Positions 9,480-62,042 of a DNA stretch of 64,000 nucleotides are shown here, piece after piece. A program made the translations under genes and the position numbers. Within the stretch, counting starts at the first letter, position 1. Each line of letters opens with the position of its first letter. The notes under the pieces were generated by a model. The model searched no databases, was not told the DNA's origin, and was given only the letters and a program-made list of their open reading frames with translations. Source of the stretch: an uncultured Planctomycetota bacterium (GTDB lineage Bacteria; Planctomycetota; JBBTDB01); assembly GCA_964530615.1 (NCBI GenBank), contig CAZHAR010000001.1:12420-76419 (forward strand). The letters are read 5' to 3'.

Positions 9480-10724
9480 CTATTCGTATCGTATCAATTG
9501 TCGGACGGCCTCTGCGTCAGAAGCAATTTGTTCTGGATCTTCGTGCATTAAATAAACTTCATATGATTTGCCATAAATATCCTTAGTGACTCCGAGATGA
9601 GATCCAAGGGGGCGAGTGAAGCCTATCCTAAAAAAGGAGGGTAGTTGCTGAACTTCTTCTAATCCGTAAATGGCTTTAATACAAGGAATTTCATAAGTTT
9701 GAAGCCCATTTATAATTCGCGCTTGGAGACGATCATAGCGATCATAATGTAAATCCTCAAGACTGATAGGAAGATTCGCCATATAGTGACAAGCGGCCAA
9801 CTCAAAAAGGCTACGTTCGTGAAGCTTTGAGGTATTGAGGGGTTGATTTCCTCCGGCAAAACGCGCGCCGACTTCCACGAGACAGGGTCCGTATTCATCA
9901 AATTTGAGTTCCATATGAAACGGAGATTTACGGAGTTCAAGGGTTTCAATCACTTTTCCTGCATAGGTCGCTAGCGGTTGAAAAACAGCTTCGTTTGTGT
10001 TGACTTTGATGGTTTCATAATAGAGGTTTTTATATCCATGACTATCTCGTTTATCATAGCGCCAGACATCGGTAATCAGGACATCATAATCGGAATTGGT
10101 AATGCCATTGACGACATATTCGATGCCTCCGAGATACTCTTCTAGAAGCACCTCTCCTTGTTTTCCATGAAAAACTTGGACACAAGATTCAATCAGTTCT
10201 TCCATCGTATTCACAAAAAAAACGTTTTTAGAACCTCCGCCTTCGGTCGGCTTGACAACTATCGGCCATTTATTTAATTCTTGTTGAAAAGCAACTGCTT
10301 CTTCTTCGGTCGTGACAATCCGAGAGGCGTTAATTCGTAAATCCGTGGTATTTTTTCGGAGAAATTCTTTCAAGTAGTATTTGTTTCGAAAACGATGAAT
10401 CACTTCAAGCGGGTTCCAGTCGATTCCCAAATATTCACCTAGTTCTGCGCCAAACTCAATCGTAAATTCGCTCCAAGGAATAATTCCATCTAATGTTCCC
10501 CAATCCTGAAGAATTTGCTCTGCGAGCGATTGAACCTCTGGAAATTCGCTGGCTAAATATTCATCCACAAAATAATCGCCAAGTTCTTCCTCAAACAGAT
10601 GATGAAAGGTATGATATTGATCTTCTGCCGTAAATACCGCGATCCCGCGACAATCATGTTGCGCTAGAAATTCTACCATATAGGCCGGATAATCATGACC
10701 CGGATCTAAGATAACGTAGTACAT
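9480..10724 (-). CDS. ATP-grasp domain enzyme (carboxylate-amine ligase-like)
   Basis: ATP-grasp glycine-rich region VVKPTEGGGSKNVFFV. First gene of the minus-strand operon, 8 nt before the kinase gene. Confidence 0.6.
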   Translation of the reverse strand: MYYVILDPGHDYPAYMVEFLAQHDCRGIAVFTAEDQYHTFHHLFEEELGDYFVDEYLASEFPEVQSLAEQILQDWGTLDGIIPWSEFTIEFGAELGEYLGIDWNPLEVIHRFRNKYYLKEFLRKNTTDLRINASRIVTTEEEAVAFQQELNKWPIVVKPTEGGGSKNVFFVNTMEELIESCVQVFHGKQGEVLLEEYLGGIEYVVNGITNSDYDVLITDVWRYDKRDSHGYKNLYYETIKVNTNEAVFQPLATYAGKVIETLELRKSPFHMELKFDEYGPCLVEVGARFAGGNQPLNTSKLHERSLFELAACHYMANLPISLEDLHYDRYDRLQARIINGLQTYEIPCIKAIYGLEEVQQLPSFFRIGFTRPLGSHLGVTKDIYGKSYEVYLMHEDPEQIASDAEAVRQLIRYE

Positions 10725-10763
10725 AGGTAAAGAACCTTAATGAATAAGTAACTGTTCAGGTCT

Positions 10764-10850
10764 CCTAATGTCCCCCGCTGGCGGGGGATCAAGGGGGTGG
10801 AGTCTTTCAGAATTGCTCTTCCACCCCCAAACCCCCGCCAGCGGGGGACA
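10764..10850. repeat. REP-like GC-rich palindromic element: two inverted copies of ccacccccNNNcccccgccagcgggggac forming a compound hairpin
   Basis: cctaatgtcccccgctggcgggggatcaagggggtgg ... ccacccccaaacccccgccagcgggggac. Each arm holds a perfect 7-bp hairpin (cccccgc/gcggggg). A third copy lies at 57106-57143. It is GC-rich in an AT-rich intergenic region. Confidence 0.8.
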
Positions 10851-11013
10851 AAGACCACAAGATTTTATGGTTTGACCCGAGTTGAGATCTATAGGTTGTA
10901 CCTGAATAGTTACATGAATAATGAATAATAAATAATGGAGCAGAGAAATTTCGTTGTTCTCTGGTAATATTGTAACTATTTCTTGCCGTTGTGGAATATT
11001 TTAGGGAGGATTC

Positions 11014-20391: not shown

Positions 20392-22122
20392 ATGGATTTG
20401 AGACTATTATTTCTACGTTTAGTTATCGGGGGACTCTGTTTTTCCTCGATGTTGGCACACGCACAAACTCAAGATTGGTTGACTGCTGAAAAGCAAACAA
20501 CTCCACAAATTCAGTCGAATCCGGCAATTTCGGAAAATATCGAAGAAATTCGTAATTTGATTTCCCTTGCTGTGAACGGCTCTTTTGAGGAAAGTTGGAA
20601 CGCTTCTATTCAATTGGCCGCGATGGGGGATATAGTAGTTCCCTATCTTCTTCCTTTTTTGGCGGATGAACGAGAAGATCTTCATCGTACTCAGGCGATT
20701 GTTGTCCTCAAAAAAGTGGGTTCTCAAGCAGTTTTGCCTCTTGTTCTTGCGTTAGATACAGACGATTATTTCCTCCAACAAAATATTTGTATTGTGTTAC
20801 GAGAGATTCGAGATACTCGTTCTCTTGGATATTTGCGTTGGCTCCTAGAAAATTCTAAAGGGTTTTCCGAGGTTCGTCCTTACGCAGAGCAAGCTATTAA
20901 GGCGATTGGTGGACCTGCGAATACTGCAAAACAAACCTTATACAATCAAGGAATGTGGTATTACACTCAAACCCCTAGCAATGATGCTTTAAATCCTCAT
21001 AACGTTTGGAGATTTGAAGCAGATAAAAAAAATGTGGCATTCGTTACGGTTCCAGAGTCTGCTTATTTTGCTTCACTCGCTGAAGAAACGTGTAATCAAG
21101 CTCTCAAAATCGATCCAACCGATCGAAGTGTTTGGGCGCTTTTAGTTTGCGCTTATTTTAAACAATACGCTGAAACTCGTAATCTTTCCGCTCGAGCAGA
21201 AGGTGCCGAACTTCCAGACGAAGTTAAAAAAGCCTATGCTAAAACTGAAAAACTTTTTGTAAAAAAGAAAGTTTTCGGAAACACAGCCGGAGTTGACGCT
21301 TTGATGGGTGGATTAACTTTGGCAATGGATAGTAATCATCCCGCAGTGGGTGTCGAAATTCTGGATGCTATAGGGGAAGTTTGCAACGAACAAGACCTCG
21401 CTTCAGGAAATCCTGTTTTCAAAGCGCTCACGTCTTCTCATCAAATGCTTCGTTACGCCTCGGCTCGAGCCTTGGTTCGTATCAACCCGACGAAAGCATT
21501 CCCGGGCGCTGAACGGGTGATCCCGAACTTAGCGGAAGCCTTCAATAACAAAGAGGTTTCACTACAAGCTTCTGAAACCTTGGCCTCTCTTGATCCCTCC
21601 CGTTCCATTTTCAATGCGGGTAGCGCCGTTGATGGTTTGATTTCGCTCTTGGCTTCTCCAACCAAAGAAATCAAAATCTCCACCATTCGTGCTTTAGGAC
21701 AAATTGGAAATGCGAAAGCATTAGGGTCTTTAGCTAAAATTCTCTCCTCTAAATCGGAAGAGAATAATACTCGCTCCGATGCCGCTTGGGCCATTGGAGA
21801 AATCTTTAAAATTTCTGGAAGCATTGAACCTCAAGCATACGAAGCGTTAATTCAAGGGGTCCGAAATTCTAATTCAGAAATTCGAAACCAATCCGGGTTA
21901 GCAATGGGAAAAGCCGCTAAACTGGATCCCACGAAACGATTCTCGCTCTTCATTGCTGAAAGAGAAGCTGGAAATACCGCTACTGAAGAACCTTCTAAAG
22001 AAGAAGAACCTTCTGAAGAATCTAAAGAAGAAGAACCTTCTAAAGAATCTAAAGAAGAAGAACCTTCTAAAGAAGAAGAACCTTCTGAAGAGGGCTCCTC
22101 CGAAGAGATGAAAGACGAATAA
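20392..22122 (+). CDS. Secreted HEAT-repeat (PBS-lyase type) protein with a C-terminal acidic EEPSK tandem repeat
   Basis: Signal peptide. Repeated ALGxIGxxxA HEAT_2-like units. C-terminal EEPSKEEEPSEESKEEEPSKESKEEEPSKEEEPSEE is encoded by DNA tandem repeats at about 21986-22092. Confidence 0.6.
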   Translation: MDLRLLFLRLVIGGLCFSSMLAHAQTQDWLTAEKQTTPQIQSNPAISENIEEIRNLISLAVNGSFEESWNASIQLAAMGDIVVPYLLPFLADEREDLHRTQAIVVLKKVGSQAVLPLVLALDTDDYFLQQNICIVLREIRDTRSLGYLRWLLENSKGFSEVRPYAEQAIKAIGGPANTAKQTLYNQGMWYYTQTPSNDALNPHNVWRFEADKKNVAFVTVPESAYFASLAEETCNQALKIDPTDRSVWALLVCAYFKQYAETRNLSARAEGAELPDEVKKAYAKTEKLFVKKKVFGNTAGVDALMGGLTLAMDSNHPAVGVEILDAIGEVCNEQDLASGNPVFKALTSSHQMLRYASARALVRINPTKAFPGAERVIPNLAEAFNNKEVSLQASETLASLDPSRSIFNAGSAVDGLISLLASPTKEIKISTIRALGQIGNAKALGSLAKILSSKSEENNTRSDAAWAIGEIFKISGSIEPQAYEALIQGVRNSNSEIRNQSGLAMGKAAKLDPTKRFSLFIAEREAGNTATEEPSKEEEPSEESKEEEPSKESKEEEPSKEEEPSEEGSSEEMKDE

Positions 22123-22253: not shown

Positions 22254-22339
22254 GCCGAAGTGGCGGAATTGGTAGACGCGCTAGATTCAGAGTCTAGTTC
22301 CCGTTAAAGGGAGTAAGAGTTCGAGTCTCTTCCTCGGCA
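22254..22339 (+). tRNA. tRNA-Leu (anticodon CAG), class II with long variable arm; CCA not encoded
   Basis: GCCGAAGTGGCGGAATTGGTAGACGCG... 5' end. Anticodon loop TTCAGAG. Long extra arm. T-loop TTCGAGT. 3' ...CTCGGCA. Confidence 0.85.
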
Positions 22340-24237: not shown

Positions 24238-26961
24238 GTGGTTAAATGGTGGCAACAACTTATTCAAGAATTAACTGAAGAAGAATCCTTAATCTTTAAG
24301 GATGATTTAACGAATTTGTATAATCGCCGCTTCTATAAAATGCGTCTCAAACAAACCATTCAGAAAAATTGCACTCCAGAGAAACAGATCTCTTTCTTAA
24401 TGCTAGATTTGGATCATTTTAAATCGATCAATGATAACTATGGCCACCAAAGCGGAGATCAAGCCTTGATCCATGTCTCAGGTATTATGCGTCAAGTGGT
24501 TCAAGATCGTGGATTTGTGATTCGTTATGCCGGAGACGAATTTCTAATTATCTTACCCGAACAAGGAAGAGCGACCGCTCGCACTATTGCCGAAGAAATT
24601 GGTTATTCGGTTGCATCGACTCCGCTTGAAGTTCGGGCACAAAAAAAAATCGTCATTACCTTGAGCATCGGATGCGCTTCTGCGCCAGAAGATAGTCAAG
24701 CTCTAGAAAATCTTTTTGAGTTAGCCGACATCGCCCTTTATGTCTCTAAGGAAAATGGACGGAACCAAGTGAGTCTTGTCGGAGACAAAGCTCGCTCCAA
24801 AGAAGCTGTTGTTGGAAATTTTCCCTGCCCAGAATTTGTGGCGCGCGAAACCTTTTTTGAACATTTCCAAAAACAAACTCATCCTTTTTCAAAAAATTAC
24901 GCTTTTTTCTTTGGAGGGCCCGTCGGGATCGGGAAAACTCGTTTTCTTCAAGAATGTATCTCTCGCTTGAAAAAAGAATCTTTTTTTCGGTGCTTAGAGA
25001 GCAAATGTGAACTTCAAGAGCAAACGCCTTATGTCAGTTTAATGAATATTTTTGACCAAATTCTCTGGATGGAGATGAAAGAACGAGACACTTTACTCAT
25101 CGGATTAACCGAAGACGAAAAATTGGTCATTAGTCATTATTTTCCTAATTTACACTCTTCAAACCTCGCTCCGCCACGAGATTTGAAAAATTTATTACTG
25201 ACCAAAGATAGCTTCTTTCTCTCTGGAATTGAAAAGGTTTTACAAAATATCGCTCAGAAGAAAATTTTGGTTCTGATTTTTGATGATATTCATTGGATGG
25301 ATGAATATTCGTTGGGTTTGTTTTTTAAACTTCTTTATCAAGAAAAACTACCCTTTCTGTTCATCGGAGGCTATCAAACTCCTTTAAAATCGGACTCTTT
25401 GCTCACGACTCTTTTCTCGGACCCCCGAATTTCGCTTCTTCCGATTTTTGTCCAAGAGCTAGCGCCGTTAACAACCCCTGAAATCAAACGAATGATTCAA
25501 TCGATTCGCCCTAATTTTGATCCCGATCCTGAATTTTTAGAACTGTGTCAACAACATACACAAGGAGTTCCTCAAAAAATTGAGAGCGTTTTGCAAAACT
25601 TAATCGAAACTCAAAAATTATTTTGGGTCGAGGGAGAATGCCGAACCCAATTAATTACTCCGCTTGATTTCACGTCTATTCTGGAAAAAAACGAATCTCG
25701 TGAAAATACAGTGAAGTCTCTACCCCCTCAAAACCTCCCTCAAAGCGCTCCAACGACGCTCGATTTTAATTTTTCAGAAGAATCGATTAAAGATTCCCCC
25801 AAAATTCCCCTTCCTCCGCCAACCCTTGCAAAATCGTCAGAGGCCCCAATAAATTTGCCCGATACCGAAGTGTTTGAAGAGGCGCAGACTTTTCTTCTAG
25901 AGTCGTCGCTAGAGACAGACCAAATTTACGCTCAGATTCAAGAAATCGAGCATTCTGCACAACCCTTTGAAGAACTCGTGAAAGATAAAATCCGCCCCTT
26001 GCTAGAGAAACTCTTATTGTTTCCAGAACACACACACAGGCCCCAACTCATTCAAATCATCACCCAACGTTTAGATCATCCAGAAGAGGCCCAGAGAAAA
26101 AAGACTTTGTTTTTGCTCAAAATGCTTTCTGAATCCCAATCCAATTCCTGCCGACGACGATTTTGGTTTCTAGTCCAAAAAGAGTTTAATCATTTATTAC
26201 AAAATGAAACGCAACTCAGCGTCTTTACGATGGCTCTAATGTTGATTCCTAACCTTATTTTTGACTTTCTCTTTCAAGGAGAATATGGACGAGTTCTCTA
26301 TACCTTAGAGATTCTTAAAGAGCGAAAAAAAGAGCCCGTATTACAAGAAAAAATTCAAATAACCCTTGAAAAATTGGCGTCTTCTCATGCGCTAGAGTTA
26401 TTATTAATCGATCTACAAAATGGTCCACTTCCCCAGAAAACAGCAACGATCCAAATTTTGGGAATTTTAGGAGATGCAGTCATCGGAAATCTGACTAATA
26501 TTTTATTGCATTCCGATAATTTTCGTATTCGCCTTTCGAGTGTAGAGGCCCTTAAAGAAATTGGTCCTCACGCGATTCAACTTGTACTGCAACTGTTGAA
26601 TGAAAACACTTCCCCCCAAGTGTATTGTCGACTCCTTTCTCTGGATACGGCACTTCCAGAAGATCCAAGCTCAAACCGTTTAAAAAGAGCCCTTCTCCAT
26701 TCGTCCTCAGAGGTTCGACAAGAGGCTCTTATTCTTTTGTTAAGAAGAGAAGCGAACCAGATCGAAACGATCCTGAAAGAGGTTTTTCAATCCGGATCTT
26801 CCAAATCTTTATTGCTTTTATTAGAGGAGTTAAAAATTCATTCTTCGTCTCCATGGGCTTCGTTTCTATCCCAAATAATCACACAAAATTTTTCCGATGA
26901 AGTCACTCAAAAATGTGTTCGTCTCTTGGGAGAACAATCAGGAAGCTCTAATCTCTTATGA
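24238..26961 (+). CDS. Multidomain signalling protein: N-terminal GGDEF diguanylate-cyclase domain (AGDEF variant, no I-site), central P-loop STAND/AAA_16-type NTPase, C-terminal HEAT repeats
   Basis: GGDEF core: DLTNLYNRR, LDLDHFKSINDNYGH, RYAGDEF, SIGCA, ADIALYVSKENGRNQ. Walker A FFFGGPVGIGKT and Walker B LVLIFDDIHWMDE. HEAT-like C-terminus. GTG start. Confidence 0.75.
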   Translation: MVKWWQQLIQELTEEESLIFKDDLTNLYNRRFYKMRLKQTIQKNCTPEKQISFLMLDLDHFKSINDNYGHQSGDQALIHVSGIMRQVVQDRGFVIRYAGDEFLIILPEQGRATARTIAEEIGYSVASTPLEVRAQKKIVITLSIGCASAPEDSQALENLFELADIALYVSKENGRNQVSLVGDKARSKEAVVGNFPCPEFVARETFFEHFQKQTHPFSKNYAFFFGGPVGIGKTRFLQECISRLKKESFFRCLESKCELQEQTPYVSLMNIFDQILWMEMKERDTLLIGLTEDEKLVISHYFPNLHSSNLAPPRDLKNLLLTKDSFFLSGIEKVLQNIAQKKILVLIFDDIHWMDEYSLGLFFKLLYQEKLPFLFIGGYQTPLKSDSLLTTLFSDPRISLLPIFVQELAPLTTPEIKRMIQSIRPNFDPDPEFLELCQQHTQGVPQKIESVLQNLIETQKLFWVEGECRTQLITPLDFTSILEKNESRENTVKSLPPQNLPQSAPTTLDFNFSEESIKDSPKIPLPPPTLAKSSEAPINLPDTEVFEEAQTFLLESSLETDQIYAQIQEIEHSAQPFEELVKDKIRPLLEKLLLFPEHTHRPQLIQIITQRLDHPEEAQRKKTLFLLKMLSESQSNSCRRRFWFLVQKEFNHLLQNETQLSVFTMALMLIPNLIFDFLFQGEYGRVLYTLEILKERKKEPVLQEKIQITLEKLASSHALELLLIDLQNGPLPQKTATIQILGILGDAVIGNLTNILLHSDNFRIRLSSVEALKEIGPHAIQLVLQLLNENTSPQVYCRLLSLDTALPEDPSSNRLKRALLHSSSEVRQEALILLLRREANQIETILKEVFQSGSSKSLLLLLEELKIHSSSPWASFLSQIITQNFSDEVTQKCVRLLGEQSGSSNLL

Positions 26962-28256
26962 ACTTTAGATTCGTTCTTTATATCCCCTTTTGCCTGATTC
27001 TATTAACCTGCGCATCGTCTCCGACTTCCGACGAAAACGTCCCTTCGTTAAAAAAAGAAGAATCTCCTAAAAAAGGGTTCAACTGGATTATTCTCGAATT
27101 TACAGAAGATGAATGGAGTACCGTACAATCGATTCTTCCGTTTTATACGTTTGAAGAAGATAAAAAAGAACAGAGTGAAGATTTTACTCTGTGGCCACTG
27201 ATTTCAGGATATAAGCGTCAAAAAGACCGGCTCTATTGGTTTTCGTTTCCTTTGTTAACGCAACATTTATCCATCGAAGATCCTCAACGATCAATTCAGC
27301 ACTTTATTTCGATACCCTTAATTACTCGTTATGAAACCTATTATGTTCGCGACGACTTTTCCTTTCAACGTTTTGATTCGCTTCCGCTCCTCACGTCTAT
27401 TTTTAGCCAAATACGCCCCGCAAAAAAAGAGAAATTTTTTACGCTTGGAACTCCATTTTTTCAGACGTGGACCCTAGAACAAAAAAACCCGCTAACCCGT
27501 TTGAAAAGTTGGTCTATCGGCCCTTCTTTCTTATCCGATACTCACGATTTCGCTGTGCTAAAACGTCAACAATGGGAGGAAGAAACCGATCTCTCGATTG
27601 CAGAAATTTTTAACATTTCGTTGTTTCGTCATGAACGCTATCAGAGCCGTTTTCCCGGTTCTCGATACGCTTTTTCTCCGTCCCAATATATGAGCCTAAG
27701 CTCTGAAGAAAGTCTTTTGCGTTTTTCAGAACCTGAAACTTCTTGGAAGACGAAAACGAGTTTCTTAAACCCGTTCTTTTCTCTTAAATTTGAAGCCAGT
27801 GAATTCCGACAAGCCGAACTCCTACCGCTTTTTTCTTATCAACAAGACTCTGAGCACTGGAGTTTTAGTTTGACCCCGCTTTTCCTTTCGCTAGACTCTT
27901 CAAAAATCGTTGACTTCACCCCCCGAAAAAGTATGGAGTCCTTTTTTCCGCTCGTCTGGTTTGAGCCTGAACGAAACCAATGGAATGGACTCGCTTCGTT
28001 CTTTTTTTATCGAAAAGATCGGACACGAGAAGAAACACAAATACGCCTCCGTGGAATTTTTGAGTTCGATCAAAATACGCGTCAAACTAATTTCAATCTT
28101 GGCGAAGGAACCCTTTTTAGCTACCACTCTGATTTAAATTATGAACGTTGGAGCTTCCTCACTGGATTCTTATTTGGTCGATCGACAGAGCCAGATGGGA
28201 AATATATCGAATTTTTGTTTTTCAAAATAAAAACGGAAGATTTCTCTGGAAAATAG
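26958..28256 (+). CDS. Lipoprotein, hypothetical; translationally coupled (ATGA overlap) to the GGDEF-NTPase-HEAT gene
   Basis: Signal peptide plus lipobox (LLTCAS). 4-nt overlap with the upstream stop codon. Confidence 0.5.
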   Translation: MNFRFVLYIPFCLILLTCASSPTSDENVPSLKKEESPKKGFNWIILEFTEDEWSTVQSILPFYTFEEDKKEQSEDFTLWPLISGYKRQKDRLYWFSFPLLTQHLSIEDPQRSIQHFISIPLITRYETYYVRDDFSFQRFDSLPLLTSIFSQIRPAKKEKFFTLGTPFFQTWTLEQKNPLTRLKSWSIGPSFLSDTHDFAVLKRQQWEEETDLSIAEIFNISLFRHERYQSRFPGSRYAFSPSQYMSLSSEESLLRFSEPETSWKTKTSFLNPFFSLKFEASEFRQAELLPLFSYQQDSEHWSFSLTPLFLSLDSSKIVDFTPRKSMESFFPLVWFEPERNQWNGLASFFFYRKDRTREETQIRLRGIFEFDQNTRQTNFNLGEGTLFSYHSDLNYERWSFLTGFLFGRSTEPDGKYIEFLFFKIKTEDFSGK

Positions 28257-28293
28257 CAGAACATCCCCCTTCGGAGGGGGTTAGGGGGAGGAT

Positions 28294-29748
28294 ATGAAAG
28301 TTAGAATTCGATATAAAATTGTCCTTCCCTTTCTTTGCTTATTTATATTAGTGTTTTTATTTGGGTATTGGCACTTGGCAAAAACCTTATCCAAACAGAT
28401 CGAGGAGCAAATCGGAACACAGATGCGGGAAATTGTGTACAGCATCGGACATACCAACTATCTAAGAAACCAAAAAATTGTTGAAAAAGTCAAAGCTCTT
28501 ATTCATGCCGATCTCATTCTCGGGGAACAATTCAATCGTATTTTGAGTAGCACTCTTTCTGTAGAAGAAACAAATCAAGTTTTGTTGTGGATTCGTGAAA
28601 AAAATATCTTTGCTGTGACTCCAGAGATCGACCCCAAATCTTGGCCCGAAAGCAGTCTTATCTTTCGAGAGTTTCGCCTCCCGTCAGGTCTTTATAGCAT
28701 TTTTGCGACCTTCCTCCCAGAAAAGAGAAATCCGCCGTGTTGGATGCTCCTGTTTTTTTCCGAAGAACGCTTTCTCGCTCCTCAGCAAAAAATTTCTAGA
28801 ACCCTTCAATATGCTCTCTATCCTGCTTTAATCCTTATTATCGGAATCGGTTTCCTCATTTCCCTAACCATTACTCGACCCCTCGAAGGACTCTCCAGCG
28901 AAGCCAAACAAATCGCTCATGGAGATTGGGAAAAAAATCTGACAGTTCAAACTTCAGATGAAGTGGGTGAACTCGCTCAATCCTTTAATCTAATGCTACA
29001 AGAGTTGCGTCATACCCAAAGCGAACTCCTTCAAGCAGAAAAATTGGCGACCTTGGGAAAAATCACTGCACGTGTGGCCCACGAAATTCGCAACCCGCTG
29101 ACCTCCATAAGAATGATTTTACAAAACGCTAAACGACGTATTGAACAACAGCAGTTCCCCTCTTCTGAATCTTTTTCGCTGGTGATGGACGAAATCGATC
29201 GTCTTGAATGGATCATTCAGGAACTCTTAAGTTTTGGCCCTAATCCGCCAGAATTGAAACAAGCCTGGATTCCGCTTTATCCTTTATTAGACGGAATGTT
29301 GTCCATCGCTTTAACACGATTCACTCATTTGAAAATTAAACTTCAAAAAGAGTACGATCCCCGCATTACAACGGTTTACGGCGATGGAGATAAAATAAAA
29401 CAAGTTTTCTTAAATTTGCTCTTGAATGCGACTCAGGCGATGCCCAATGGCGGAGAATTAAAGGTGAAAACACAGTTGCAGTTCTCAGGAAGCATAGAAA
29501 TTACGGTTTGCGACACCGGAATGGGCGTTTCTCCTGAGGCCGAAGCTCATCTTTTTAAATCCTTTTTTACGACCCGATCCAACGGAACTGGCTTAGGATT
29601 ATCTACCAGTCGAGAAATTGTGAAGCAACATCAGGGCGAAATGGGATACCGCCGAAAAAATCCGGGTTCCGAATTCTGGTTCACCCTTCCCCACGGAAAT
29701 GATGAAATCTTTTTTCAGAATGCAGAAAAAAAACTGCATCCTCCGTAG
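28294..29748 (+). CDS. Sensor histidine kinase (two TM helices, periplasmic sensor, HAMP, HisKA, HATPase_c)
   Basis: H-box ARVAHEIRNPLTSI. G-box GTGLGLSTSREIV. HAMP region after TM2. Preceded by a CCCCCT-TCGG-AGGGGG hairpin (28265-28280) and a GGAGGA RBS. Confidence 0.8.
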   Translation: MKVRIRYKIVLPFLCLFILVFLFGYWHLAKTLSKQIEEQIGTQMREIVYSIGHTNYLRNQKIVEKVKALIHADLILGEQFNRILSSTLSVEETNQVLLWIREKNIFAVTPEIDPKSWPESSLIFREFRLPSGLYSIFATFLPEKRNPPCWMLLFFSEERFLAPQQKISRTLQYALYPALILIIGIGFLISLTITRPLEGLSSEAKQIAHGDWEKNLTVQTSDEVGELAQSFNLMLQELRHTQSELLQAEKLATLGKITARVAHEIRNPLTSIRMILQNAKRRIEQQQFPSSESFSLVMDEIDRLEWIIQELLSFGPNPPELKQAWIPLYPLLDGMLSIALTRFTHLKIKLQKEYDPRITTVYGDGDKIKQVFLNLLLNATQAMPNGGELKVKTQLQFSGSIEITVCDTGMGVSPEAEAHLFKSFFTTRSNGTGLGLSTSREIVKQHQGEMGYRRKNPGSEFWFTLPHGNDEIFFQNAEKKLHPP

Positions 29749-29764
29749 GGGTCATTTTAAAATT

Positions 29765-29865
29765 CCCTACTGTCATTGCGAAGGCAGTGAAGCAATCTCC
29801 GAAAGATTCAAGCGGTACGGAGATTGCTTCTTCGGCTTGCGCCTCATCGCAATGACAATAGGGAC
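29765..29865. repeat. MITE/REP-like nested palindromic element, family 'tgtcattgcgaa', copy A
   Basis: Outer inverted repeat ctactgTCATTGCGAAggc / gcCTCATCGCAATGACAatag. Inner inverted repeat GAAGCAATCTCCG / CGGAGATTGCTTC. Starts 17 nt after the histidine kinase stop. Confidence 0.8.
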
Positions 29866-29929
29866 TTTTTTTTTATAGCGTTGGAAAGATTTTTGCTAGA
29901 AGTGCTTCCACTTAGAAAAATTTCTCTTT

Positions 29930-33764: not shown

Positions 33765-35837
33765 ATGAGTTTTCGTAGAAGTTTGAATTTTTTTATCTTC
33801 AGTTGTTTTTGCCTCTCAGGGATCCTAGCGCAAGAGGCTTCCGAAACTCTTTTATTTGAAGCCAAACAAAAATATAAAGAGGCCCAGCAAGAAAATGAAC
33901 GAGTGCTTCAAGATCCCTCTACTACTCAGCGACAAAAGACCATTCGATCCATTCGCCACGCTTTGAATGTGTATTCTCAAATCATTGAACAATATCCAGA
34001 GAAGGAAGAAAGCGTCACCGAAGAGATGGCTGTCTTAAATTCTTGGCTATTTTGGACCCGAAAATTTGCGCCCATTGATTTCAAGGAAGAGGACTCCGAG
34101 ACGAAACCAGAAGACCCGCCAAAACCTCCAAAGGAATCTCCGAACTCCCCTGAAGAAGCCACGGAAACTGGAGAGGATATTTCTTCATTGCCCCTTGATC
34201 TCCAGAAAATCGAAAAGATAGAACCCCCCCCAGAGATTGAGAAAAAGATCCTCTCTCAGGAGCCAACACGTGAAGCCAAATACCCTTTGGAAACCGCTTG
34301 TTATTTTCGTCAAAAAATAGCGAAAATGCTCCAAAATCGTCGATTTTTCGAGGCCATTGAACAATGCAAAAATGCCCGTGCGAACGCGATGAATCTAGAA
34401 TATCAAGCGGAACTTGACGGAATGGCCGAAGATCTTCAATCCTGCCTTCAACTCTACCAACAATGGATCGAGGTGCTCAAGGACCCGTCTGCATTAACGC
34501 TGAAATTTAAGCTCATCACCGGACTTAAGTTAGAAGGGTCTGTGAAAAAATTTGACCAGAAACTTCTTCATGTCGAAAGTACTCAAGGAACAATGGGAAT
34601 CAATATTTTCATGCTTTCGACGGAGACACTGATCGAAATGGCAAAACTGAAAAAATTGCCACAACTTGAAGAATTAGGCACTCTCTTAGCCTTCTGGGAA
34701 GGAAACGCGAGTAAAGCCGGAGAGGGCTTTAAATCTCATAACGATTTCAAAAATGCGACGACCTATCTGAAAAAACTGGAACAATGGAAATCTCACGAAA
34801 AACAAGTTCAAACGTTGGAAAAAGAAAGATCAAATCAATTTAAACAGACGGAAAAAAGCTATGATTTGTTCAACCAAGTACTCGAAGAGTTGAATCACAA
34901 AGACGAAAACAAGGCCCTTTATGAAATTTCCAAACTGTGTCCGCTTCTGACCCCAGAAACGACTCAGGAAATGGAAGAATTGCTGAAAAAAGAGATTAAA
35001 AAAGACTGGATCCAACTTATTTCTGATCTCCGTTATCGATGCACCACTTGTAATGAAGATCGAAAACTTTCTTGTACGCCTTGCAATGGAAAGGGACGAA
35101 CCAAGAATCCTCCTCATTTCTCGGCAAAACCAGACAGTAGCGGACAATTTATCTGCCCGAAGTGTAAAGGGCAAGGGATGTTTACTTGTGGCGCCTGTGT
35201 CTGGCGCTTTGGAGATCCGAAAGCGCAAGGAGTTGAAAAATATTTTGCGGTTCCGTCCGCGACCACGGAAAAAAAACTCTATTCACCTCTTCAAAAAACA
35301 GTCATTACGGGCGAAGTACGTTGGGGCGATCTTCTCTGTGAAGAGTTTAACGTGATATTAATTGGAACTGGGGCTAATCATGGTAAAGAAGGCAAAGCCT
35401 ATCAAACAGAGGTTCAATCCGGCAGTTATTTCCAATTTGAAGTGCCACAAGGATCCTATAGTTTGTTTTATTGGAAAGATACCGTCGTATTTCGTAAAAA
35501 TATTATCGCGGATAAAGGATCTCTACAGGTGAACCTCGCTATCAAGAGCACTATTGATTTTTTAAGTCCAGAAGAGCCAAACGCAGTTCTCACGCGCCCA
35601 CCTTTCTTAAAATGGACTCATAACAAGGAAGAACATTTTGTAGTCAAAGTATTTCAAATAGAAAATTCTAAAAGCTTCTTCCAATATAAACCGATTGCGA
35701 TTTTTTATCAGGTCGGGAACAGTCTGTTGATCCCAAAAAAAGAAGCGGTTCTAGGAAAAACTTATCTCGTGTTGATTCATGGCTATGGAGGAACCCAATT
35801 AATGAGTCAGGGGCGAACCACGTTCAAAGTTAAATAA
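33765..35837 (+). CDS. Secreted coiled-coil protein with a DnaJ-type cysteine-rich zinc-finger (CxxCxGxG) module
   Basis: Signal peptide MSFRRSLNFFIFSCFCLSGILA. CTTC...CTPCNGKG...CPKCKGQG...CGAC gives four CxxC pairs with the GxG spacing typical of the DnaJ zinc-finger. C-terminal beta-rich domain. Confidence 0.5.
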   Translation: MSFRRSLNFFIFSCFCLSGILAQEASETLLFEAKQKYKEAQQENERVLQDPSTTQRQKTIRSIRHALNVYSQIIEQYPEKEESVTEEMAVLNSWLFWTRKFAPIDFKEEDSETKPEDPPKPPKESPNSPEEATETGEDISSLPLDLQKIEKIEPPPEIEKKILSQEPTREAKYPLETACYFRQKIAKMLQNRRFFEAIEQCKNARANAMNLEYQAELDGMAEDLQSCLQLYQQWIEVLKDPSALTLKFKLITGLKLEGSVKKFDQKLLHVESTQGTMGINIFMLSTETLIEMAKLKKLPQLEELGTLLAFWEGNASKAGEGFKSHNDFKNATTYLKKLEQWKSHEKQVQTLEKERSNQFKQTEKSYDLFNQVLEELNHKDENKALYEISKLCPLLTPETTQEMEELLKKEIKKDWIQLISDLRYRCTTCNEDRKLSCTPCNGKGRTKNPPHFSAKPDSSGQFICPKCKGQGMFTCGACVWRFGDPKAQGVEKYFAVPSATTEKKLYSPLQKTVITGEVRWGDLLCEEFNVILIGTGANHGKEGKAYQTEVQSGSYFQFEVPQGSYSLFYWKDTVVFRKNIIADKGSLQVNLAIKSTIDFLSPEEPNAVLTRPPFLKWTHNKEEHFVVKVFQIENSKSFFQYKPIAIFYQVGNSLLIPKKEAVLGKTYLVLIHGYGGTQLMSQGRTTFKVK

Positions 35838-35839
35838 CC

Positions 35840-36097
35840 CCTTATTCTCATTGCGAACGCGGTGAGAAGCCATTTTAAAAATAGAAGAATTCGGATTTTT
35901 CCTTTTTGTCATTTCGAAGCGATAGCGAGAAATCTTAAGGTTTTTAGCGATACCTAAGATTTCTCTTCGGCATAAAGCCTCATCGAAATGACAGAGAACA
36001 TGATTTTTAAAATGGCTTCTGAAGCAATCTCCGTTATGCTTGAAATTTGCAGAGATTGCTTCGTCGCCTTTGAGGCTCCTCGCAACGACAATAAGAT
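35840..36097. repeat. MITE/REP-like composite element, family 'tgtcattgcgaa', copy B (about 258 bp, 2-3 nested palindromic subunits)
   Basis: Terminal inverted repeats cttatTCTCATTGCGAAcgc ... gctcCTCGCAACGACAataag. Internal subunits tgtcatttcgaagcg...cctcatcgaaatgaca and gaagcaatctccg...agagattgcttcg. Fills the gap between two gene 3' ends. Confidence 0.8.
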
Positions 36098-36119
36098 CTG
36101 TTCTCAACAACGGGAAAGA

Positions 36120-44147: not shown

Positions 44148-44295
44148 CCCTTATTGTCATCGCGAGGAGCCAATGAAACGGTCGTTACGCATCTCCGGTA
44201 TGCTTGTCATTGCGAACGCAGTGAAGCAATCTCCGGTATGCTTGAATCTTTCGGAGATTGCTTCTTCGGCTTGCGCCTCATCGCAATGACAATGA
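44148..44295. repeat. MITE/REP-like element, family 'tgtcattgcgaa', copy C (one and a half units)
   Basis: cttaTTGTCATCGCGAGGAGCC ... TTGTCATTGCGAACGCAGTGAAGCAATCTCCG ... CGGAGATTGCTTCTTCGGCTTGCGCCTCATCGCAATGACAatgag. Starts 23 nt after the upstream stop and runs into the 5' end of the annotated histidine-kinase ORF. Confidence 0.8.
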
Positions 44296-44321
44296 GAGAT
44301 TCTTTTTTTGGGGGGGCAATT

Positions 44322-47112: not shown

Positions 47113-47143
47113 ATTATTGTCACTGCGTTCGCAATGACAATAG
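47113..47143. repeat. Minimal copy (terminal inverted repeats only) of the 'tgtcattgcgaa' element, copy D
   Basis: attaTTGTCACTGCGttCGCAATGACAAtag, a near-perfect palindrome 7 nt after the Hpt stop between convergent genes. Confidence 0.7.
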
Positions 47144-47162
47144 AAGGTTTTAAAACAGATTC

Positions 47163-56299: not shown

Positions 56300-57088
56300 A
56301 TGATCGATTTTCCTTCTTCTTTACACTCTATTTTCCAGGAAATTTTTCAAACCGGAGACTTTGCTTGGAAAAAAGGATGGGTCGAAGGAGCCGCTGGAAA
56401 CTTATCGATCCACCTTCCTCACTATTCTCATTTGGGTTCTTTTTCTAAAATTGCCCCGCTTCCAGCCCCCTACCCCCGGTTACAAAATCAATATTTTCTT
56501 GTGTCCGCGAGTGGACAGAGATTTAGAGAATTTGGGCTCGATCCTGCAACGACTTTGGGTATTTTTAAAATTCTTGATAATGGAACCCATTATGGGATTT
56601 GTTGGGGATTTGAGAACACGCGTCCGACCTCGGAACTCAGTTCTCATTTAGCGATCCACGAACTAAGACAATTTCGAGAACCTATTGGCGCAGTGCTTCA
56701 TGTTCACGCGACCCATTTAATTTTAATCGCTTCTTATGAAAATTGTCGAACCGCGGAACAACTCTCGACGGTCTTGTGCCATCAGCATACCGAAGTCGAT
56801 CTCTATTTAAAAAAAGGAGTCGGCTATGTCGGCTTTGAGGTCCCCGGCAGTATCCAATTGGCCCATAAATCCCTAGACTCATTTTCTCAATATGATCTCG
56901 CTATTTGGGAAGGACATGGCGCTGTTTCGGTTGGAAATAGCCTAAAACAAGCCTATGACCGAATGGAAGTAGCCGACAAGCAAGCGGAGCTTTTCTTGAA
57001 AGCGGAACATTCCGGCTTGCCCCGTCGCAAACTGTCCCCTTACTTTCGCCAAGAAATAAGAAAAGCCCTCTTCGGCGACCCTTTTTAA
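56300..57088 (+). CDS. Class II aldolase/adducin-family protein (MtnB / fuculose-phosphate aldolase-like)
   Basis: AAGNLSIH N-terminal motif and HVHATH metal-binding histidines. Confidence 0.55.
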   Translation: MIDFPSSLHSIFQEIFQTGDFAWKKGWVEGAAGNLSIHLPHYSHLGSFSKIAPLPAPYPRLQNQYFLVSASGQRFREFGLDPATTLGIFKILDNGTHYGICWGFENTRPTSELSSHLAIHELRQFREPIGAVLHVHATHLILIASYENCRTAEQLSTVLCHQHTEVDLYLKKGVGYVGFEVPGSIQLAHKSLDSFSQYDLAIWEGHGAVSVGNSLKQAYDRMEVADKQAELFLKAEHSGLPRRKLSPYFRQEIRKALFGDPF

Positions 57089-57105
57089 GATTGTCCCCGA
57101 AAGAC

Positions 57106-57143
57106 TCCACCCCCTTGATCCCCCGCCAGCGGGGGACATTAGG
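57106..57143. repeat. REP-like GC-rich hairpin element (third copy of the 10764-10850 unit)
   Basis: ctccacccccttgatcccccgccagcgggggacattagg is the exact reverse complement of 10764-10802. It sits between convergent genes and is a likely bidirectional terminator. Confidence 0.8.
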
Positions 57144-57147
57144 CTCT

Positions 57148-57840
57148 TCAAAGCGGAGATTCATCGGGTATCCTGTTCTCTTGATTAGGAGTATGGAAGG
57201 TTCCAAAGAGATAATCGCAGAAGGGGTAGGTAATATTGAAGTGATACCGATTCATTAACCTTGTGTCATGGTGAACCGTATGGTGTTGTCTTAAGCGAGC
57301 CATGAACGGGAGCTTTCCTGCCCAGGAATCTTCTCGTAAATGATAACAAAAATGGAGCCACTCATAATTGAGATAATAGCCCAAAGCCGTCAGGACAAAA
57401 AGATATCCGGTATTGGCACTCAAATAATAATAGAGTAAAAAACCCACAGGCAACGCAAAAAAGCCAAAAAAGAAGACAATCAAAATCGGAGGGAAAAGCA
57501 CCATCTTATAATCTTGAGTGCCTTCATAAGACATGGATTCATGGGTAAAAAAATGATGATGTTCCAGTGTATGCCTTCGAAAAATCAAGGATAAAAAGCG
57601 CTTTTTGTGATGCATTGGGCCTTTGTGGGCCAGATATTCCACAAGATTGGCGTACAAAAAAGTGATTGGAACGACCAACAGTTCTTTTCCGGAGACATCC
57701 TGAATGGCCAGAAGGCTCATCAGGATTCCCGTGATTCCAAAAGCATTGATAAATCCGAAATGCAACAGCCCTGAATAATATTTTGAGAACTGTTGCTCTC
57801 GATGGTGTTGCCTAAAATTAGAAACGGTTGAAGGAATCAT
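57148..57840 (-). CDS. Fatty acid hydroxylase / sterol desaturase superfamily membrane protein
   Basis: Histidine boxes HKGPMHH, HTLEHHHF and HHTVHHD in a polytopic membrane protein. Confidence 0.65.
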   Translation of the reverse strand: MIPSTVSNFRQHHREQQFSKYYSGLLHFGFINAFGITGILMSLLAIQDVSGKELLVVPITFLYANLVEYLAHKGPMHHKKRFLSLIFRRHTLEHHHFFTHESMSYEGTQDYKMVLFPPILIVFFFGFFALPVGFLLYYYLSANTGYLFVLTALGYYLNYEWLHFCYHLREDSWAGKLPFMARLRQHHTVHHDTRLMNRYHFNITYPFCDYLFGTFHTPNQENRIPDESPL

Positions 57841-61055: not shown

Positions 61056-61415
61056 AGGCCCAAAGATCCTTCTTCTAAAAAGACAGAGATGAAATAAAAA
61101 GAAAAACAGGAAGTGTCTTCAGAACAGTACTGGAAACACGAAGTTTATTTTATAACGAAGTAAAGATTCCACAAGATCCTTCTCTGAAAACCTGTCATTT
61201 GGCGTATCCTTTCAGCAGAGGCTCTTAAAAAATAGCCAATCGAAAAAAATTTCGGCCTTTTCCTAGGATTCAAAGGACTCAAAAACTTTTGAAAAACTTT
61301 TTTTTGACTCTTTTTTTTAGAAATAGTCTACGCTAAAAATACGTATAAAACCTCATTTTGAGAAGGATTCTCTGTTTTTTGTTTTAAAAAAATAAAAAAA
61401 TATCCAAAATTTTTT

Positions 61416-61443
61416 TTGACTTTTCTTGCGATAACAATATAAT
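61416..61443 (+). promoter_or_regulatory. Near-consensus sigma-70 promoter (TTGACT-N16-TATAAT)
   Basis: TTGACT at 61416-61421 and TATAAT at 61438-61443, about 88 nt upstream of the small ORF at 61531. Three tandem copies of ATCTATTCC lie in the leader (61486-61525). Confidence 0.45.
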
Positions 61444-61530
61444 TAATACAATGATTATCTGATATATTTATTTTATCTTAGTTATCCGTAATCTATTCCC
61501 AATCTATTCCCTTTCTATTCTGGAGAATTT

Positions 61531-61767
61531 ATGTATCGCTTAAAGATAACATTTGCTCTTCTTCTTGTTTATTCTCTCTTGTGTCCTATTTTTGGTGTCG
61601 GTTTAGTCCGAACAGATTCCGGTCATCTGCTTTTATCGAGCACTTATCTCTTTGGTTTTGAAATAGGGATTGTCCTGATGGTGATAAGCGGTTTTTATAC
61701 GCTTTATCGGTACAACGAAGCTGAAAAGCAAGGCGAACGCACACAACAATTAAAACAAGCCGCTTAA
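61531..61767 (+). CDS. Small two-TM membrane protein, hypothetical
   Basis: Two hydrophobic helices and a C-terminal charged tail. Followed by a strong terminator. Confidence 0.4.
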   Translation: MYRLKITFALLLVYSLLCPIFGVGLVRTDSGHLLLSSTYLFGFEIGIVLMVISGFYTLYRYNEAEKQGERTQQLKQAA

Positions 61768-61885
61768 AAAAATTTCTCAAAGAAAAGGATCTTCCTCTAT
61801 TACTATTAACTATCCTACTTAAGCAATTGATAGACTAAAAAAAATATTTTATGTTGATCATCTGTAATAGATGGGGAAGAAGATA

Positions 61886-61926
61886 AGGCAGGTAAATTGT
61901 TGAGCATTTACCTGCCTTTTTATTTT
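61886..61926 (+). terminator. Rho-independent terminator
   Basis: AGGCAGGTAAAT-tgttgagc-ATTTACCTGCCT perfect 12-bp stem followed by a T-rich run. Confidence 0.8.
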
Positions 61927-62042
61927 CTAGATTTAAATTTAAAATTTTCTAGAAAATAGTTGTTTTTTGTTTTTTAACCAGTAATATAGATAAACATTAT
62001 CTTATTTATTGTATTAAGCCCCAACCTCAAAAGGAGGTCTTT

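Follow-up and report, generated by a model that had tools for sequence, protein, structure and literature searches.

Catalogues of BoxC/PIT/triplex-motif repeats go back to the 1990s. Such repeats are numerous in enterobacteria and cyanobacteria and have been linked to genome instability; to our knowledge, no origin, mobilising activity or function is established for them. BoxC, PIT and the Escherichia coli element TM_ECO share a layout, known as class II, in which a C-block is followed by a loop, a G-block, a 3-nt loop and a further G-block, and TM_ECO itself is always intergenic, shows no strand bias and forms five inverted pairs among its 23 copies in K-12 (PMC4666352). Elements of the TM_ECO type are also abundant in cyanobacteria and are tied to local genome variability, while Holder et al. 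never found mobility functions near TM_ECO, an in vivo triplex went undetected for this element, and PIT elements have neither promoter nor terminator activity in E. coli (PMC4666352). REP superfamilies, another kind of small palindromic repeat, are defined by a GTAG/CGTC tag (PMC3733652), and REP-RAYT pairs are described as lineage-specific and vertically inherited.

On the protein side, DUF559 has been grouped with Vsr and the EDxHD enzymes, and an independent survey found it enriched among genes with flanking inverted repeats (odds ratio of 14). In the literature searched, no link of DUF559 or ycjD to BoxC or to intrastrand triplexes was found, and a search for the exact sequence of the unit described below returned a single, unrelated CRISPR paper.

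Four repeat units in the window

The window (the whole 64-kb stretch of DNA that was analysed, from an uncultured member of the Planctomycetota in a Hainich groundwater metagenome) contains exactly four hairpins of the form C5-loop-G5, each with an extra G5 or C5 run 3-5 nt away from it:

10769..10801, + strand (G-rich): unit A, TGT-CCCCC-GCTGGC-GGGGG-ATCAA-GGGGGTGG-A, within the 45-nt block 10764-10808
10802..10819, no strand: inter-box spacer of 18 nt, with the boxes facing inward (GGGGGTGGA ... TCCACCCCC)
10820..10850, - strand (C-rich on +): unit B, TCCACCCCC-AAA-CCCCC-GCCAGC-GGGGG-ACA, inverted partner of unit A
28262..28292, + strand: unit D, A-box type, CAT-CCCCC-TTCGGA-GGGGG-TTA-GGGGGAGG-A
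57099..57143, - strand: unit C, solo, reading on the + strand GAAAGACT-CCACCCCC-TTGAT-CCCCC-GCCAGC-GGGGG-ACATTAGG

Because all four hairpins are accompanied by a further run, the element at 28265-28292, whose hairpin (28265-28280) had been called related in an earlier reading made from the letters alone (the sequence-only reading), has the same architecture and is the same kind of unit. Comparison of the window with itself shows 10764-10808 to be the reverse complement of 57099-57143 over 45/45 nt, the two copies lying 46 kb apart, so that the inverted match already noticed between 57106-57143 and 10764-10802 is present and longer than had been claimed. The 16-nt core CCCCCGCCAGCGGGGG occurs at three sites of the window, against 0.19 expected, a count equalled by none of 100 shuffles. 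Three units (A, B and C) are of the GCCAGC/T-box type and one (D) is of the A-box type; the spacer is TTGAT in units A and C and has 3 nt (AAA) in unit B.

The compound palindrome that had been proposed for 10764-10850, on account of a third copy, holds good, this copy occupying 10820-10850, and a stretch of 103 nt (10758-10860) is predicted to fold as one long ssDNA hairpin (-40.4 kcal/mol, z = -9.1); the fold of a lone unit is unremarkable (z = -1.2), all folds being computed with ViennaRNA, which considers Watson-Crick pairs only. The perfect 7-bp stem claimed for each unit would leave a loop of 2 nt, and the hairpin is realistic as 6 bp closed by a CCAG tetraloop. What had been missed is the third G/C run (CCACCCCC / GGGGGTGG), and it is this run that makes the unit an 'intrastrand triplex motif' of the BoxC/PIT type (PMC4666352).

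All four units are intergenic. The A/B pair lies in a divergent region, 5' of both an ATP-grasp gene (9480-10724, - strand) and a gene coding for a membrane spermidine-synthase-like protein (from 11180); unit C takes up the greater part of the 59 nt that separate two convergent genes, 56300-57088 (+) and 57148-57840 (-), one of which is a class II aldolase gene; and unit D fills the 37 nt that lie between ORF 26958-28256 and the co-directional ORF of the histidine kinase (28294-29748), with a GGGGGAGGA box that stops 1 nt short of the ATG of the kinase. No T-tail or terminator call was found at the window units. Over the window, Rfam returned only one tRNA at the gathering threshold, and at a permissive threshold only generic long-hairpin miRNA-precursor matches, all far below cut-offs, with no RNA family that fits. 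A Pfam survey of the 47 long ORFs of the 64-kb window detected housekeeping and signalling genes only, and no transposase, integrase, RAYT or DUF559 gene. GC content is 41%, that is, moderately and not strongly AT-rich as the earlier description implied, and composition is flat across the boundaries of the 46-kb interval between the identical copies.

In two other assemblies of the same organism contigs end inside unit A, as is expected of a multi-copy or palindromic repeat. The only syntenic relative (L122, 77% protein identity) is without the A/B pair; its intergenic region at that place is shorter and has diverged too far for an empty site or insertion boundaries to be defined. Loci for P0005 and P0009 are not syntenic, and no clean pair of filled and empty sites was obtained. 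Inspection of the A/B and C sites found no target-site duplication.

Separate from the C5/G5 units is another family of repeats, the first one of the sequence-only reading, formed by long palindromes at gene ends (29765-29874, 35829-36105, 44150-44308 and 47117-47156) of the type TGTCATTGCGA..GAAGCAATCTCCG-loop-CGGAGATTGCTTC..TCGCAATGACA, at times nested or paired.

Architecture and mirror repeat of the unit

On its G-rich strand the general unit reads (T)GT-CCCCC-loop-GGGGG-N2-7-GGGGG(T/A)GG-A, and the second G-run (G5TGG or G5AGG, the box) mirrors the 3' arm of the hairpin. A mirror repeat that places G opposite G, A or T opposite A and T opposite an inverted C-G pair is what an antiparallel purine-motif triplex needs, and a third run that mirrors the purine arm means that one strand can fold back twice, so a unit could potentially form both a Watson-Crick hairpin and a purine-motif triplex on its G strand. 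A T opposite an inverted C-G pair (the T.CG triplet) is usable in antiparallel purine-motif triplexes. For purine-motif intrastrand triplexes, G.GC and A(T).AT triplets have been stated, and the ITxF definition asks for a Y block, a complementary R block and a third R block, with stems of 6-15 nt, loops of 1-6 nt and one mismatch permitted from stems of 7 nt (PMC4666352). Units A and C have this structure (CCCCCGC / GCGGGGG / GGGGGTG, with loops of 2-4 and 5 nt and one T.CG), as do unit B, whose second loop has 3 nt, and unit D (CCCCCT / AGGGGG / GGGGGA, loops of 4 and 3 nt, no mismatch); the third block is placed as a mirror that makes G.GC and A.AT/T.AT triplets possible, a comparison in which phylogeny is ignored.

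The 3' arm and the box vary together across loci: GGC-G5 is found with G5-TGG (135 cases), GGA-G5 with G5-AGG (11 cases, unit D among them) and AAA-G5 with G5-TTG (7 cases), and in a Smithella-type variant the three runs are altered together (CCTCC / GGAGG / GGAGGTGG). Among 106 distinct units from loci collected without regard to the motif, the box is a T-box in 42/44 units with a G-C sixth pair, and an A-box in 54/62 and a T-box in 8/62 of those with a T-A sixth pair; the association (Fisher 1e-18) ignores phylogeny and is confounded by shared descent. Units of the A-box class have 28 different loops. This covariation of the mirror repeat lends support to a real constraint acting on all three runs. 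The spacer that separates the hairpin from the box ranges from 2 to ~45 nt across loci, which is a poor fit to a fixed triplex loop, and the second loop sometimes holds a nested hairpin.

Three other accounts of the runs were considered and discarded. If the box paired with the 5' arm by Watson-Crick pairs, T or G would stand opposite the base that follows the box (T.T, G.G), and because of this clash Watson-Crick alternatives fail to predict the covariation. A G-quadruplex or i-motif would have to be built from just two runs of at least three G per unit, with a complementary C5 run in cis. A coding role, suggested by DUF559 ORFs that are sometimes extended by a unit (as ...PRQRG), is rejected because the spacers of 2-7 nt show no 3-nt periodicity and units are depleted from long ORFs.

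Judged on these features, the window units are a new sequence family of the BoxC/PIT/triplex-motif structural class, with which they share the three-block class II C-G-G layout, the intergenic position, the lack of strand bias, high copy identity, inverted pairs and the fact that no associated transposase was noticed. The sequence-only reading had called the family unfamiliar, which is right for the sequence and not for the architecture, since the latter belongs to a described class (PMC4666352). The TM_ECO pattern, 5'-CCCTCNCCC N3-6 GGGNGAGGG N3 GGGNGAGGG, is not matched by the window units, in which the C5/G5 runs are uninterrupted and the loop is GCCAGC or T..A, instead of CCCTCNCCC/GGGNGAGGG; they have stems of 6-8 nt, whereas those of TM_ECO have 9, and, unlike TM_ECO, a second loop that may contain a nested hairpin or reach ~45 nt. 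The two families also differ in phyla, the one being found in Bacteroidota, Planctomycetota, Desulfobacterota and others and TM_ECO being proteobacterial, and in a link with DUF559 that is seen for the window family and goes unreported in the TM_ECO paper (PMC4666352).

Distribution and neighbouring DUF559 genes

The motif is not unique to the loci of the window. An exact scan for CCACCCCC-N2-6-CCCCCGCCAGCGGGGG, with one genome per species, located it in at least 118 stretches of genome sequence, which represent six or more phyla, the matches listed comprising Bacteroidota, Planctomycetota (Brocadia, Kuenenia, Scalindua), Smithella and other Desulfobacterota, Nitrospirota, Ignavibacteriota and a Chromatiales MAG. 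A core of 26-32 nt is identical across phyla (with 32 nt in Bacteroidota, Planctomycetota, Desulfobacterota, Nitrospirota and Ignavibacteriota) and, because the flanks are unrelated between genomes, the conserved part is only ~30 nt long. The copies are also depleted from coding sequence: 43/176 units fall within long open frames, which hold 80% of all bases. Short pairs are tail-to-tail in 17 cases and head-to-head in 10, and the head-to-head layout of the window is thus not the sole arrangement. The unit is also present in 13 viral contigs, in none of which a DUF559 gene was found near it.

Some of these genomes hold longer or mixed arrangements. In Smithella and related MAGs (L013, L016, L031, L062 and L064) a composite element is conserved over ~150 nt around each motif match. 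A variant unit (CCTCC GCTGGC GGAGG, nested hairpin, GGAGGTGGA) comes first, then a conserved core of ~55 nt (ataaaattc..gtatgtttcaaaaactt), next a canonical unit, and last a tail that is likewise conserved (acattactcata..caatcaatatttgcaattgcgacacagtctc); the composite may be a MITE of larger size or else a gene for a small RNA. In Brocadia and Kuenenia (L012, L055, L077 and L089) the sequence gatattcagattacg..ctgcc.aaatt.ct.gttctgccagt is conserved 50 nt upstream of a unit with the TTGAT spacer, suggesting that the anammox unit is embedded in a longer repeat. On L125 and L134 (IMG/VR) a TM_ECO-type unit (CTCTCCC-TTGAT-GGGAGAGGG-TTA-GGGTGAGGG) lies ~30 nt downstream of a C5-type unit, which means that two triplex-type sequence families co-occur on one viral/proviral contig.

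Clustering of the ORFs within 2.5 kb of the units identified, at 16 of the 118 motif loci listed, a protein of ~130 aa, identified by its match to PF04480/DUF559 (E = 9e-34), whose end lies at a C-oriented unit or within it, many of these genes having a G-oriented unit directly upstream as well. No second recurrent protein family was found beside units in the 118 listed loci, and DUF559 is the sole recurrent neighbour family when these are taken together with 80 DUF559-selected loci; ~100 of the 118 have no DUF559 gene nearby. The 80 metagenome loci were fetched by homology to the DUF559 protein alone, ignoring the motif, and units were sought within 200 nt of the gene. A G-oriented unit is located within this distance upstream in 44/72 loci with enough flank, and a C-oriented (inverted) unit downstream in 50/74; both are present in 31/66 and neither in 8/66. 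Strict units reach 4.25/kb within 200 nt of the gene ends and 0.19/kb elsewhere in the same loci, a 22-fold difference, and they end 2-60 nt before the DUF559 protein match or begin 1-40 nt past its end. The left and right copies of a cassette (gene and flanking units) match each other in loop, box and even spacer more than shuffled partners do; they sometimes differ in type, in many cassettes just one side has a unit, and the similarity of the DUF559 proteins follows the flank type modestly.

The profile of the cassette protein matches two PDB structures, 3HRL (DUF559) and 3R3P (the homing endonuclease I-Bth0305I), and the invariant residues E..D-G..H...D are conserved. The cassette gene (PF04480) resembles EDxHD/Vsr-like homing endonucleases such as I-Bth0305I and DUF559 proteins such as that of 3HRL and E. 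coli YcjD. Known EDxHD enzymes are found in phage group I introns and inteins, whereas the cassette DUF559 is free-standing, of ~130 aa, with inverted triplex-type flanks.

The window is connected with these cassettes by sequence and by layout. Its 32-nt core recurs without a mismatch directly downstream of the DUF559 genes of L082, L166, L188 and L208, and the A/B pair has the inverted order of a cassette, with 18 nt instead of a gene: the spacer 10802-10819 takes the place held by the ~400-nt nuclease gene in DUF559 cassettes. Planctomycetota have cassettes of their own (L074, from Scalindua, and L022), and that of L170 comes from the same aquifer as the source of the window. Two tandem DUF559 cassettes, head to tail and each with its own flanking units, are seen in a Chitinophagales chromosome (L006, OZ244113.1, 5640-7000), where the second loop of the upstream units contains a nested hairpin of 20 nt.

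E. coli K-12 has a single DUF559 gene, ycjD, whose product shares 39% identity with the subfamily (hhalign probability of 99.4%) and whose 3' end reads CCCTCTCCC...GAGGGGG. Between ycjD and fabI (L218, NC_000913.3 1351180-1351440, - strand), a duplicated fragment of the 3' end of ycjD (gagacggtgctggagaatattc...) comes first, BoxC-like remnants next and a canonical TM_ECO last, and the region looks like a rearrangement scar at a nuclease/repeat junction. Table S2 of Holder et al. places that TM_ECO 167 nt from ycjD, and the same authors counted 13-30 TM_ECO copies in A/B1/C strains, 6-15 in D/E/F strains and 1-2 in fourteen strains (PMC4666352). The gene is present in 3,378/5,426 complete E. 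coli genomes, being kept in phylogroups A, B1 and C and having eefRABCD in its place elsewhere. The fourteen strains with one or two copies are presumably those of phylogroup B2, and B2 strains lack ycjD. The direction of these counts fits a repeat population maintained by the nuclease, although they represent few independent events and are confounded by descent.

Possible origin of the units

Three results bear on this question, namely a cross-phylum family with BoxC-like architecture, the mirror covariation and a strong, polar association with a nuclease that recurs at ycjD. The main value lies in the last one, which is absent from the literature searched and suggests how a long-unexplained class of repeats may spread. 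Starting from the observed triplex-class architecture, cross-phylum identity, intergenic bias and tight inverted flanking of DUF559 genes, we consider the four units to be BoxC/PIT-class mini-repeats and, with a confidence a little above even, most likely the cis ends, or the solo or paired derivatives, of a selfish DUF559 cassette. The cargo of this cassette would be the small DUF559 nuclease (of the Vsr/EDxHD fold), with a G-oriented unit upstream and a C-oriented one downstream; the A/B pair would be a gene-less version of the arrangement, either a non-autonomous derivative or an unoccupied site, and units C and D would be single cassette ends. The nuclease would recognise the folded unit, and breaks made by it, together with templated repair or gene conversion, would copy units to new intergenic sites, the same repair keeping copies identical (for instance, over 45/45 nt across 46 kb). 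We infer from this scheme that DUF559 mobilises the units. The lack of the A/B pair in L122 and the contig ends inside unit A also speak in its favour. Against it speak the lack of a DUF559 gene in the window, the majority of motif loci and the viral contigs that have no such gene near their units, the absence of a visible target-site duplication, the excess of tail-to-tail over head-to-head pairs, the wide range of spacer lengths and the undetected in vivo triplex of TM_ECO. In the window they probably have no dedicated host function, plausible side effects being a hairpin at the 3' ends of convergent genes, a Shine-Dalgarno-like sequence at the histidine kinase and a substrate for inversion. 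If the link is causal, an old question becomes testable with one protein and one oligonucleotide, and both the near-identical 30-nt non-coding sequences in unrelated phyla and the broken metagenome assemblies would be explained.

As derivatives of such a cassette the units recall MITEs and the cyanobacterial 'small dispersed repeats' (SDR) reportedly described by Elhai et al. in 2008, being tiny, dispersed, non-coding and non-autonomous-looking, with hairpins nested inside units, and the inverted ends of the A/B pair are core-identical to the ends that bracket DUF559. They differ from MITEs in that neither a DDE-transposase parent nor, upon inspection, a target-site duplication was seen, and in a unit shorter than typical.

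The main rival keeps the association with DUF559 and reverses its causality: units would pre-exist and spread by other means, DUF559 genes would be homing-endonuclease genes landing in paired units, and the A/B pair would be an unoccupied site. A gene inserted in the middle of the palindrome gives exactly the order of G-oriented unit, gene and C-oriented unit, the DUF559 profile matches a real homing endonuclease (PMC9403480), and most units are far from any DUF559 gene. Homing leaves the spread and the cross-phylum identity of the units unexplained, however, and suits neither the cassettes whose left and right units differ in type nor the many one-sided ones, so we regard it as unlikely. Somewhat less probable still is that structure-prone DNA (triplex or cruciform) persists and multiplies by replication slippage and recombination, needing no dedicated enzyme and giving rise to genome instability, and that DUF559 genes co-accumulate with it in variable intergenic DNA. 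The tie of TM_ECO to local variability, with no mobility genes near it (PMC4666352), and the perfect inverted 45-mers 46 kb apart would agree with such multiplication, but neither the 22-fold enrichment with fixed polarity 2-60 nt from the ends of DUF559 genes nor the identical 32-nt core in unrelated phyla would follow from it.

The units might also be regulatory or RNA elements of the host, acting as 3' stabilisers, as terminators or through a C5 run that sequesters a Shine-Dalgarno-like G5AGG. Unit C between convergent genes, the GGGGGAGGA box of unit D 1 nt from the kinase ATG and the cassette box 2-60 nt ahead of the DUF559 start are what would be expected from such elements; the A/B pair, by contrast, occupies a region of divergent promoters, on the 5' side of either gene, the units have no T-tail, terminator call or Rfam family, PIT is inactive as promoter or terminator in E. 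coli (PMC4666352) and the flanking genes are unrelated across loci. Host-function readings suit individual sites (C and D) and not the family, for which we find them improbable.

The likeness to REP/BIME elements drawn in the sequence-only reading is sound as regards small, GC-rich, palindromic intergenic repeats in inverted pairs, since the four window units are imperfect palindromes of the 20-40 bp range, multi-copy and intergenic, and, like REP, BIME and REPIN elements, they come singly or as inverted doublets that form long hairpins, here also GC-rich in a genome of lower GC. It fails on the GTAG/CGTC tag that defines REP (PMC3733652), absent from the four window units and from the 140-copy consensus (whose flanks are TGT...ACA/ATA/AGA), on the extra mirror-repeat run, and on lineage, because the core, with flanks that are unrelated, is common to six or more phyla, whereas vertical inheritance within a lineage is described for REP-RAYT pairs. 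Mobilisation as REP/BIME or REPIN by a RAYT (Y1 HUH transposase) is therefore very improbable, the more so as the window holds no transposase and the 118 listed loci no second recurrent family beside units. Finally, the inverted 45-mers, in spite of their 45/45 identity and orientation, hardly delimit a composite transposon or an invertible island of 46 kb, since the enclosed genes are only housekeeping and signalling ones (LeuRS, PriA, arginine decarboxylase, kinases), neither a recombinase nor a transposase is among them, composition is flat over the boundaries and the unit belongs to a multi-copy family.

A DUF559 cassette with triplex-type ends, the reading that we favour, has a parallel with REP-RAYT in that the repeats bracket one small, nuclease-type gene and the elements are possibly domesticated, this gene being a PD-(D/E)XK (Vsr/EDxHD-like) DUF559 and not a Y1 HUH transposase. 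It could be tentatively extended, at a confidence clearly below even, to BoxC/PIT-type repeats across bacteria, of which DUF559 would be the missing partner in a second REP-RAYT-like system, based on a PD-(D/E)XK nuclease that would recognise the fold made by the hairpin and its mirror box, with the gene-less units as non-autonomous members. The low BoxC counts of B2 strains hint that gene-less units, such as those of the window and E. coli BoxC, decay upon loss of DUF559.

Elsewhere in the window, tandem repeats of 9/18/27 nt at 21985-22091 (GAAGAACCTTCTAAAGAA...) encode, where the HEAT-repeat ORF 20392-22122 has its C-terminus, an acidic repeat of the EEPSKE type; a tRNA-Leu(CAG) gene (22254-22339) follows directly. 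Two stretches of ~1 kb each (1330-2318 and 61056-62042) contain no ORF of at least 90 aa, the second one having 31% GC and lying ahead of a cytochrome cd1-type gene, and they may be promoter or regulatory regions or contain small genes.
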